Shown here piece after piece: positions 30,401 through 33,296 of a stretch of DNA of 43,259 bases (positions within the stretch are counted from its first letter, which is position 1; each line of letters starts with the position of its first letter). This stretch comes from a bacterium (GTDB taxonomy: Bacteria; Patescibacteriota; Gracilibacteria; Absconditabacterales; Absconditicoccaceae): positions 1 through 43,259 of the forward strand of contig JAYTKZ010000040.1 in NCBI GenBank assembly GCA_043729885.1. The letters run 5' to 3'. The notes beneath the pieces were generated by a model. That model saw only the letters and a list, made by a program, of their open reading frames with translations. It did no database searches and was not told the origin of the DNA. A program made the position numbers and the translations under genes.

Positions 30401-33296
30401 ATTTATTTTTTGAATGAGATTATATGGTGGAGCTGTTAAAATCTTGAGTATCAAAAAAGATGCGTCAGGTACGGTGACACAAGTAGAATATGAACAAAAT
30501 TGACAAAAGTTATTTGCTGATCAAGCAAAAGTTAAAGAAGCAATACAAAGGAAAAAAGCAAATCAAAAAGATAAACAGATCAATACGCCAGAACAAAAGA
30601 ACAAGAATATGGTAGAGCGTATGAAAATAAAAGCACCAAATAAAATCTGAACAAGAAAAAAAGAAAATGCACCAGGAAAAAAACCGATTGAAGTAGTTAA
30701 TACATGAGTTGATCTTTTTGCTATTAAATCTGATCTTAAACAAGCGATGGATTATATTGGACTTAAAAATTCTAGTGTTGTAACTATAGAATGAAAGAAA
30801 CATATTTTTCTATGAGTGAAAGAGTGAAAAGCACAATTCGTAGAGAAATGAGCAATACCAAAAGAGTTTTCTACTATTGAATCTATGAAAGATATCAATC
30901 GAGAACCATGAGCTAAAAATACAAATGCTTGAAGAAAAGGAAAATTTTCTGAGTTAATGAATGCAAAAGAAATAGCAGAAACTAAACTAAACCCAGAATC
31001 AAAAAATACAACGCCATGAACGAAAGCAAAAATTGATAATCAATTTAATAACTATAAAAACCCCCCAGCACAGAAAAGAATAGATAATTTATATAAGCAA
31101 TATGAAAAACAAGATAAGTTTGAGTTACAAGTCCTTCAAGCACAAGATTTATTACGTTCACAATGAGATGCTAAGTACATATCAGATGCTATGAAAACAC
31201 TGAGAGATGCTGGAGATATTGTACAATTAAGTTCAAATGATGTTAAACGTGTGCAAAAGGAAATTGGATTTAAACCTAGCGAAGCAGATGGAATCCGATG
31301 ACCTAAATCTCAAGCAAAATTAGAAAGCTATATTAATAAGAAATGAAATATTGTAGAGACAATTACTACTACGTCTAATAAATTCGATTTATCAAGAAGT
31401 GGACCAAAACCTAAAAGAAACATTGATAAATCTATTGAGACTTCAGAAATTCCGTGATTGTGAAAATATGAAGTAAATAGACGCAATGATTGGATTAGAA
31501 TGACGCTTAAAACAAATTTTGGTGAAATGACACTGGAATCAAGAAATGTAAATACTAAAGAATATATTATGCATGCAGATATTCCAAATAATAAACTTAT
31601 TGCTGGTAAAGCATACAAATTTCTTTTTGATAAGTTGCCAGAGTGAAGTAAAATAGTAGAAAAAGATTCTCTTTCTGGAGATAGTTTCAATAATATGGTT
31701 AAACTCTATAAGAAATGAAACACAAGTAACTATAACATATATTCAGAATGATACGTTAAACTCAATGAACAAGGTAAAAATACTGATATTGCAAAATCTA
31801 CTCAAAACAACAAAGATAAAGATGTAAATGCAAGAACAGCTATTTTCTGATCAAAAGAGAGTGCAGAAAAAGTTATTATAGATATTCAAAATATGATACA
31901 AGGAAGTAATTTACCACCACCAAGAATAGTTGAGCAAACACCATGACAATTCATTATAGAATTACCAAATATAATTATAGAGAAGATGATGCCAAATAAA
32001 AATGTAGAAATTGTGCCTGATAAATCTCTAGAGAAAAATATAGCTGAAACTTCACAACCAGAAAATAAAATTGAATATGTGAAAGTTAAAAATCAACTTA
32101 CAAATAGTAATAATCTTGAATTTGTTAATATATCTTCTAAACTTGAAAATATTGTTACATATACTGACTATAATAAACAATTACACGAAATATGAGAAAA
32201 AAAGATTGCATTTAGTGATATTGTACTTACTGGTTCTCAACTAGAAGCTAGAGTGACAGAGGTTGTACAATGAAAATTATCTATAGATTATATACCAAAA
32301 GAACTTCGCTCAAGAGTAACAGAACTGAAAAAAAATGAAATTGAAAATAATCGAATTAAAAAATTAGATAAGAACGAAAAGGTTATATTACAAAAGATTA
32401 GAAATAAAGAAAGTGTGGCTTGATTACTAAAAGAACATAGATGGACTCATAGAACTACTATGGAGTCATTACAAGCTATCTTACAAAAGTGATTTATTCA
32501 GTGATGAGATAGAGGAGTGCAATTCTGGCCAGGTATATGATCAGGATATGGTGATATTGCGTTGATTATGAAACCTGAAGTTCAAAAACTACCTGGTGTA
32601 AATAATGATCCAAATATTTGATATTTCTTTGGTAATAAAAATGCTACATCAAATGGAGTGAAAGAAGTACCTATTGATACTTATCTTTCTTCAGTAGTTG
32701 ATTTTTCTCATCAAAGAATTTCTAAGTGAGATAATCCGAATATTAATGTTCCATATTTATCTATATGAAAAGATAATGCTTGAGTGTGAGCTAAAAATAC
32801 TGTTTCAGCTGATTTAATCGAAGCTGTGACGTTACCAGAACATTTGAAACTATCTCCAGAATATAATACTATTGTTACGCAGTTAAAGCAAAAGTGAATT
32901 AAAATTATAGAAGTAAATACTTGAAAAAATTCACTTGAGTATGCTGGCACTTCTATAGTAAACGCTAGAGAATTTATTACTTGATGACAATTATCTATAT
33001 TTGGAAAACAAATAATGGTAGAGCTTAAACAAAAATATCCTAATCTGACTTTTGAAGAAGCATGTTGTAAATACCTTTCTGAAACAAGAAATCTTAGATG
33101 AACTTTTCAACAAATACAAAGTAAATACAACAATGAAATTGCTACTAATGTTTGATTGTCTAGATGATCATTTGCATCATGACAATTTCAAAATTATGTA
33201 TCACAAAAAAACTTTACAAAAGAACAACAACAATATTTTGAGTACGTATTAGCAAAACAAGTAGCTAAGAAAATGAATTTACAACCAACTAAATAA
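27447..33296 (+). CDS. Giant protein, 1,949 aa: two peptidoglycan-binding-like motifs, a central Gly/Ala-rich hydrophobic region, and an unassigned C-terminal domain
   Basis: I walked every codon: no TAA or TAG for 5,850 nt in AT-rich DNA, and about 80 in-frame TGA. Unites track ORFs 27591..27920, 28113..28535, 29208..29396 and 31986..32195, all in the same frame. First ATG after an in-frame TAA at 27432. Confidence 0.85.

Follow-up and report, generated by a model that had tools for sequence, protein, structure and literature searches.

Two stretches of a giant Absconditabacterales protein resemble the second half of the PG_binding_1 domain

The PG_binding_1 domains of SjcF1 bind peptidoglycan (PG), as a passage of PMC4488944 states. 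The Absconditabacteria (SR1) depend on hosts and have been cultured barely or not at all, and most of their long proteins lack annotation. For their predatory relative Vampirococcus lugosii, the passages of PMC8080830 on its ten longest proteins (1392–4163 amino acids, aa) describe them as inferred membrane proteins that probably act in host recognition and attachment. Here we analyse a stretch of 43,259 nucleotides, called the window throughout, from contig JAYTKZ010000040.1 of an Absconditicoccaceae bacterium (assembly GCA_043729885.1); it is contig C40 of a genome of 168 contigs, 0.97 Mb and 32% GC. One of its open reading frames (ORFs), the giant ORF of 1,949 aa, holds two short stretches, motif 1 and motif 2, which as sequence profiles resemble PG_binding_1 (Pfam PF01471) well beyond controls.

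The two motifs had been picked out in an earlier reading of the same DNA (the original prediction), and their positions and peptides are exact: within this one ORF (Table 1), motif 1 translates to VKSLHRYQKKYENTSGWSKADCIVGPKTIQQLIADCGM and motif 2 to VKRVQKEIGFKPSEADGIRGPKSQAKLESYI. As had also been noticed, the glycine of G-P-K is encoded by TGA in each of them ('cga tga cct aaa' and 'gta tga cca aaa'). The D-G-x-x-G-P-x-T/S pattern that both were said to share is found in motif 2, whereas in motif 1 D-C replaces the canonical D-G; with this substitution, the repeat unit of PG_binding_1 (a helix ending in hydrophobic-Q, a loop, D-G-x-hydrophobic-G-x-x-T and a further helix) is present in both. 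Both motifs are kept in homologous giant ORFs of related genomes: motif 2 in those of G012, G001, G024 (two copies) and the homologue L079, for example as DIKRLQKEIGLQGKQVDGILGPSTLNRLSSYL, and motif 1 in G013, G012, G022, G359, G199 and L079. The consensus of the 125-position block that contains motif 2 (module 2) includes NDIKRxQKEIGxxxxxxDGILGPKTLNKLxSYL, and the canonical D-G-x-x-G-P-x-T is present in most copies of this module. Over eight sequences of motif 1, the residues L, H, Q, S, D, G and T are invariant.

In this genome TGA encodes glycine (code 25). Seven of the eight TGA codons of uL2 align with conserved glycines of Thermus L2 (RFRGGGHKR, DHPHGGGEG), and under table 11 just 47% of the window lies in ORFs of at least 100 aa. 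The giant ORF contains 80 TGA, 51 GGN and 15 TGG codons, which gives 131 glycines and 15 tryptophans if TGA is read as glycine and 95 tryptophans if it is read as tryptophan. At the G-P position itself, homologues of motif 2 have TGA at nine of 11 loci and GGT or GGA at the other two, and homologues of motif 1 are split evenly between TGA (3/6) and GGG or GGA (3/6). This alternation is consistent with TGA meaning glycine at exactly that site. In the database copies of the giant family (P0003–P0014 and P0068), TGA has been translated as tryptophan (about 5% W and 2–3% G), so that D-G-x-x-G-P reads D-W or W-P, which would hide the motif from annotation.

As reference for the profile comparisons, nine full PG_binding_1 domains from relatives were aligned and compared by hhalign with family alignments restricted to the motifs. 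Against the whole domain, the scores were 43.9 for motif 2 (Prob 96.0, P 4.6e-9) and 34.8 for motif 1 (Prob 92.7, P 4.2e-7). In 100 column shuffles of each alignment the highest scores were 19.5 (motif 2) and 17.5 (motif 1), none of them at Prob 50, and reversed-sequence controls scored 10.1 and 6.9, respectively. When the protein was cut into 126 sliding 60-aa segments and these were compared with the nine true domains, the top six were exactly the segments over the two motifs (scores of 24.2–27.5, compared with a median of 10.45 and 16.8 for the best unrelated segment).

For motif 2, the likeness to PG_binding_1 is well supported by further sequence comparisons. A HMMER search with the module-2 profile (A1) against 1.84 billion (1.84e9) proteins gave 283 matches at E ≤ 1e-3, and those outside the giant homologues cover only profile positions ~78–117, in 3–13 stretches each. 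All 40 matches checked (the multi-stretch ones in P0011–P0053, out of 150 matches listed) carry PF01471 above the Pfam gathering cut-off of 23 bits, and many of these proteins also have amidase_2/3, VanY, M15, M23, NlpC/P60 or GH25 domains. E-values of module 2 against PG_binding_1 proteins go down to about 1e-17, a value that sums several repeats. Among 177,635 PDB sequences, the best of four rows was the L,D-transpeptidase YcbB (7aj9_A, E 6.8e-4), with motif 2 aligned to YcbB residues 224–254 (PIKQFQKMHGLQTDGVIGPQTMKWL). The same profile found matches in 24 of 401 genomes of the class. We checked 22 of the weaker places, that is, the 27 beyond the genome itself and G001, minus L037 (a stop inside), L046 and L048 (other profile positions) and L022 and L044 (already in A1): 12 had PF01471 at E ≤ 10, two of these above cut-off, and if PG_binding_3 is counted as well, 15 had one of the two families and seven had neither. 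Two homologues of module 2 come just short of the 23-bit cut-off on PF01471 itself, the best at 19.2 bits (G001, positions 24–57) and the other at 14.3 bits (G012, positions 34–57). Finally, the window's own copy of module 2 matched endolysin families of the PHROG library, namely 17214 (E 1.6e-5 / 2.7e-5) and 1493 and 2649 (4.3e-4, 5.8e-4), and phrog_17214 was matched by seven of the 14 members of the module-2 family alignment. The PHROG match covers only the end of the profile (for example positions 275–321 of 322) and no catalytic part.

The likeness of motif 1 is weaker than that of motif 2 and moderately supported, its support coming only from profile comparisons. Six weak matches of the module-1 profile A3 in other genomes were checked, with L093 (profile positions 78–140) left aside: three are true PF01471 domains (26.4, 48.1 and 27.8 bits), two are unassigned look-alikes and one, an ATP synthase gamma subunit, is a false positive. 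A profile of the motif alone (A6) matched 51 of 134 PG_binding_1-repeat proteins at E ≤ 0.01 and 0 of 5,909 other ORFs of the genome (best E 1.3); the 134 proteins had been picked through module 2 and are rich in repeats, so their summed scores are inflated.

Several results weigh against reading these stretches as PG_binding_1 units, in addition to the false positive and the inflated scores just given. The PF01471 check of the motif windows that had been proposed with the original prediction came out empty: the window's copies gave no match at E ≤ 10 as whole protein, as 71-aa segments or as modules, and none of six copies of module 1 matched the profile. In a six-frame PF01471 scan of the whole genome, the only match was in G000:C100 (E 3.4e-8), which is neither motif, and NCBIfam returned only PG_bind_siph (E 0.1, 12.9 bits for a cut-off of 55), which we take as noise. 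A small hidden Markov model built from the nine true domains gave the giant ORF just E 0.058 over 5,910 ORFs, the lowest whole-sequence value after C100 among the 25 rows listed. Module 1 matched no annotated PHROG family, and against the PDB neither of its profiles (A3 and A6) gave a PG-related match, the best being ribosomal S13 (E 1.6). Moreover, the detectable match of both motifs is the second half of the domain only (helix 2, loop, helix 3): hhalign P-values were 9.1e-10 (motif 2) and 1.9e-7 (motif 1) against the second half alone and 3e-4 and 6e-3 against the first half alone. Of the PG_binding_1 fold that had been claimed for the motifs, the profile-level likeness stands (hhalign with its controls and, for motif 2, HMMER, YcbB and PHROG), and the full three-helix bundle is conjectural. 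The C100 match is the genome's sole PG_binding_1 domain at Pfam level (L001, G000:C100:910–1062, minus strand); the 469-aa open frame around it has neither a hydrophobic segment nor any other recognised feature.

Structure prediction, the other check that had been suggested, was informative for one module of the two. The AlphaFold model of module 2 (14 sequences) is confident, with a mean pLDDT of 79.9, a pTM of 0.64 and six helices, of which the last three (65–72, 81–90 and 104–126; block means 85–92) span the motif, helix 65–72 being short. Fold searches with this model, which also count against the PG_binding_1 reading, gave no significant match in the PDB by Foldseek (best E 2.2), in VIA wide (best Z 5.3, Roquin; SleC at Z 4.2), in a second look at pdb_via (SltB3 at Z 2.1) or in BFVD (best E 0.5). 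Wall-related chains do occur among the weak rows (2nr7, 6v3z, SltB3 5anz, SltB2 7qvd, SleC 9h68 and several phage muramidases and amidases), no higher than unrelated helical proteins. The model of module 1 (eight sequences) had a pLDDT of 50.1 and is unusable, with just a helix–loop–helix secondary structure worth noting.

Where in the cell would the two motifs lie? The original prediction had them flank the hydrophobic core of the protein, which is correct (Table 1), and had drawn from this that at least part of the protein works in a murein-containing compartment. That step is plausible, and the location is doubtful: the giant protein has no hydrophobic N-terminus or N-terminal signal peptide, and across six homologues one strongly hydrophobic helix is kept (Kyte-Doolittle 1.75–2.47), the remaining segments being weak. 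With a single conserved helix of this kind, the membrane may separate motif 1 from motif 2, and would do so if that helix is the sole span. The flank charges of the helix are ambiguous, acidic upstream and basic or neutral downstream; by the positive-inside rule a basic flank points to the cytoplasmic side. Two homologues carry FHA domains C-terminal of the helix, that is, on the side of module 2 (P0004, 24.6 bits, and L019 in G002:C93, 22.7 bits; cut-off 20.7), and a third (L012, G013:C12) has MORN repeats there; the usual place of an FHA domain is the cytoplasm. By contrast, the true PG_binding_1 protein of this genome likewise has no hydrophobic N-terminus within its open frame, so that a missing signal peptide is weak evidence here. 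The organism has murein genes: a Mur ligase gene adjoins the giant-gene locus, and of 61 genomes of the family 49 contain true PG_binding_1 domains.

Table 1. Coordinates in the window of the giant ORF, its parts and the small ORFs beside it.
Feature	Position	Strand	Description
Giant ORF	27447..33296	+	1949 aa; 80 TGA codons decoded as Gly (code 25); belongs to a family of modular giant proteins in Absconditabacterales/SR1
Module 1 (aa 96-262)	27732..28232	+	Conserved N-terminal block holding motif 1; L, H, Q, S, D, G, T invariant in 8 sequences
Motif 1 (aa 143-180)	27873..27986	+	VKSLHRYQKK...SKADCIVGPKTIQQL; resembles PG_binding_1 second half, D-C for D-G, longer loop
Hydrophobic Gly/Ala-rich core (aa 751-1002)	29697..30452	+	Between motif 1 and motif 2
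Conserved strongly hydrophobic helix (aa 761-779)	29727..29783	+	After conserved G-x-G-S...S-D-E motif; 6/6 compared homologues
Module 2 (aa 1183-1310)	30993..31376	+	Conserved 125-aa helical module; best-conserved part of the protein; model with six helices, pLDDT 79.9
Motif 2 (aa 1266-1296)	31242..31334	+	VKRVQKEIG...DGIRGPKSQAKLESYI; helix-loop-helix resembling PG_binding_1 second half and C-terminal part of endolysin families
C-terminal cassette (aa 1601-1949)	32247..33293	+	Matches no known family
Small acidic ORF, 102 aa	27120..27428	+	Just upstream of giant ORF; same-position ORF in syntenic G001 locus
Small ORF, 117 aa	33298..33651	+	Begins 2 bases past giant ORF; same-position ORF in G001 locus

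Six-frame searches of related genomes returned homologues as large ORFs that have blocks in common with the giant protein: aa 8–1067 in G013, aa 14–331 and 1112–1299 in G012, aa ~1167–1298 in G001 and G024, aa 9–178 in G022 and part of the C-terminus in G002. The N-terminal block was also found in G359 and G199 by further searches, and L079 has both motifs. About a dozen further giant homologues of 1,488–2,594 aa came from the profile search of 1.84 billion proteins, and relatives of the gene lie in metagenome-assembled genomes (MAGs) of Absconditabacterales/SR1. A search for related loci with alignment A1 found too little conserved for patterns and gave five loci with the closer alignment A2. 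A protein-homologue search with aa 1–340 (lengths 1071–3411) found only the giant protein itself, in its TGA=W translation, and phmmer with the whole protein against the PDB gave noise only (for example cofilin, E 0.04). Searches of Pfam, NCBIfam, PDB sequences and PHROG revealed no toxin, hydrolase or secretion-signal family in any part of the 1,949 aa, and for hydrolases this holds at E ≤ 10 in Pfam and E ≤ 1 in NCBIfam. Module 2 is doubled in tandem in P0003 (aa 998–1117 and 1126–1223) and P0004 (aa 992–1111 and 1124–1216). A second conserved block of no known family, …VVTIEGKKHIFLGVKEGKAQFVEKG…SMKDINREPGAKNTNAGR…, is encoded at 30750–30990 of the window (aa ~1102–1180); it precedes module 2 here and follows it in G012 and L079 (L013, L079), as a shuffled module.

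The giant gene is a hypervariable gene at a fixed locus. Positions 25038–36836 of the window correspond to 4395–14168 of L014 from the same-genus genome G001, with the order GatA (−), small ORF, giant ORF, small ORF, Mur ligase (−) and T4SS_pilin-like (−). Strong sharing between the two syntenic giant proteins (1949 and 1511 aa) is limited to module 2, where 107 aa align at 42% identity (E 3e-21), and the core gives E 0.026. Thus, within this fast-changing, module-shuffling gene, module 2 is the part under constraint. C-terminal cassettes are swapped among family members. In searches of the 401 class genomes, that of the giant ORF turned up in its own genome only, and G002 has a partial relative of it. 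Between the downstream small ORF and its G001 counterpart the similarity is weak (E 2e-4), and for the upstream small ORF similarity to the ORF at the same position in G001 was not significant. Judged as a polymorphic toxin, the protein has a variable and rare C-terminus with no known toxin family, followed by a downstream ORF that is weakly conserved despite the differing cassettes. A cassette-matched immunity gene at that position is unsupported, this conservation between genomes with differing cassettes being a misfit for such a gene.

Around the giant gene lie genes for GatA, a rhomboid protein, an ABC transporter, the Mur ligase, a glycosyltransferase and rRNA, and the window as a whole carries tRNAs, EF-Tu, a ribosomal-protein/SecY cluster, a 23S rRNA gene and ordinary housekeeping genes. 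Two T4SS_pilin (PF18895) proteins are encoded at 35919–36836 (−) and 36924–37439 (−), 2.6 kb past the end of the giant gene, with E-values of 1e-10 and, marginally below cut-off, 2.5e-5, and one is also present at the syntenic G001 locus. We considered a prophage, with the giant protein as a phage tape-measure protein (long, helical, with a hydrophobic middle and wall-related motifs). This was rejected on the basis of the PHROG searches, in which the only match was to endolysins, of the non-phage neighbours and of the presence of the gene at the same chromosomal locus in the same-genus genome. The share of TGA among glycine codons differs sharply between genes of the window: 0/31 in the ABC transporter (20435–22234, −), 0/37 in EF-Tu (484–1656, +) and 0/18 in dCTP deaminase (13032–13697, +), compared with 23/34 in the neighbouring rhomboid gene, 80/131 in the giant ORF and 17/23 in the glycosyltransferase. 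Expression level might explain this uneven use, as might recent acquisition from a donor with the standard code.

What would such units do? We infer that both stretches are highly divergent copies of the helix–loop–helix repeat in the second half of PG_binding_1, related by homology rather than convergence, with the pattern [V/I]-x-x-hydrophobic-Q, loop, D-G/C-x-hydrophobic-G-P-x-T/S and then a helix. As such they are sub-threshold, half-domain variants of a known wall-binding repeat within an uncharacterised giant-protein family, a description well supported for motif 2 and moderately for motif 1; the interpretation given in the original prediction is supported in part. The proteins that carry them may be viewed as fast-evolving, modular giant membrane proteins of Absconditabacterales (SR1), in which motif 2 lies at the end of the 125-aa helical module C-terminal of the membrane helix. 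This module most likely acts like the wall-binding parts of endolysins and L,D-transpeptidases, docking that part of the giant protein non-covalently to murein, either of its own cell or of the cell that the bacterium attaches to. Motif 1, N-terminal of the membrane helix, would be a more degenerate copy that may bind likewise or serve another use. The helix preceding each repeat may complete a three-helix bundle, and the units would be extracytoplasmic and would bind murein. Wall docking, mainly by module 2, is the function that we favour and regard as somewhat more probable than not.

A serious rival, though on balance an unlikely one, is that units derived from or mimicking PG_binding_1 no longer touch murein and instead form cytoplasmic helical hairpins, which would make protein–protein contacts or be structural elements of a giant membrane-associated scaffold. 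The pro-domain of matrix metalloproteinases has the PG_binding_1 fold and serves protein–protein contacts without murein, which weakens an argument from fold to wall binding; it is eukaryotic, secreted and a full three-helix domain, unlike the units here. Co-option of this kind would account for the lack of a signal peptide or hydrophobic N-terminus, for the detection of half a domain only, for the loss of the canonical D-G in motif 1, and for the FHA domains and MORN repeats C-terminal of the helix, where the basic or neutral flank would place the C-terminal side in the cytoplasm. Yet the neighbours of motif 2 in sequence searches are overwhelmingly enzymes or binders of the wall (all 40 matches checked, YcbB and three PHROG families of endolysins), most copies of module 2 keep the canonical D-G-x-x-G-P-x-T, and the genome's only Pfam-level PG_binding_1 protein is itself without a hydrophobic N-terminus. 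It is also conceivable, and we consider it improbable, that the protein is a contact-dependent weapon or attachment device, whose core enters or spans a membrane, whose C-terminal cassette is an effector and whose units grip the wall of a prey or host cell and not its own. The shuffled, modular architecture with variable C-termini points in this direction (the cassette occurs in one of 401 class genomes, and other members have FHA or MORN instead), as do the hypervariability of the gene at a conserved locus, the two T4SS_pilin-like genes nearby, the Absconditabacterales/SR1 MAGs in which its relatives lie and the host recognition and attachment suggested, in the passages of PMC8080830 cited above, for the ten longest proteins of a predatory relative. 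The absence of any detected toxin, hydrolase or secretion-signal family across the protein speaks against it, and so does the downstream small ORF, which is weakly conserved where cassettes differ, unlike a matched immunity gene.

A bolder version joins docking and attachment in a trans-envelope clamp of an epibiotic SR1 cell, in which the single helix would part the two half-domains into two compartments, one holding the cell's own wall and the other, exported with the C-terminal cassette, the wall of a host or prey cell; this we regard as a long shot. Least probable of all, and by our estimate very much so, is that chance or convergence gave a lysine-rich, low-GC protein a helix-turn-helix-like pattern of a common kind (hydrophobic-x-x-Q ... 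G-P-x-T ... L), unrelated to PG_binding_1. The units are short (about 35 residues), Pfam does not recognise the copies in the window, the best PDB match of the motif 1 profile is the helix-hairpin-helix of ribosomal S13, and the fold searches are not significant, all of which one would expect of a spurious likeness. Such a likeness is hard to reconcile with shuffle and reversal scores far under those observed, with just two sites standing out among the 126 segments of the protein and with key D, G and T columns that are invariant or nearly so among homologues. Nor would it readily explain how module 2 reaches its very low summed E-values against PG_binding_1 proteins, or how the window's copy alone matches endolysin families.

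If module 2 is indeed a wall-binding handle, as we favour, it would give a first functional foothold in a family of membrane proteins of 1,500–2,600 residues that otherwise match nothing, and would mark the constant part of a gene whose remainder reshuffles between species of one genus. It would further mean that half a PG_binding_1 domain below the Pfam threshold can be functional, which would encourage wider searches for wall-binding modules. Were the clamp to be real, a stand-alone PG_binding_1 half-repeat would be a sufficient and previously unrecognised minimal murein-binding unit, and the hypervariable locus would decide which partner is recognised. A full-text literature search returned no paper with both 'Absconditabacteria' and 'peptidoglycan-binding', and no PG_binding-type term occurs in the term-searchable text of PMC8080830 or of bioRxiv 10.1101/2023.11.21.568195, which deal with giant proteins of Absconditabacteria.

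How do the units compare with described systems? The giant proteins of V. lugosii, as presented in the relevant passages of PMC8080830, are likewise very long, inferred to be membrane proteins and made by a TGA=Gly lineage that produces peptidoglycan; they differ in that WD40, TPR and PKD-type domains, and no PG_binding-like unit, are named in those passages. With the phage endolysins of phrog_17214, phrog_1493 and phrog_2649, module 2 aligns over the last ~50–90 profile positions (E 1.6e-5 to 5.8e-4), and these C-terminal ends are presumably the wall-binding parts, the library label being just 'endolysin'; the giant ORF differs from them in having no catalytic part matched and no phage genes nearby. 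Compared with PF01471, only the second half of a domain of ~57 residues is detectable here, with a score below the Pfam cut-off or absent, and in motif 1 the loop is longer and D-C stands for D-G. The setting differs as well: here the units belong to a 125-aa helical module and to the N-terminal block of a membrane protein of 1,949 aa without an enzyme domain. What they have in common with the wall-binding domain of YcbB (E. coli, PDB 7aj9; PF01471) is the unit itself: a helix ending in Q, followed by D-G-x-hydrophobic-G-P-x-T leading into the next helix.

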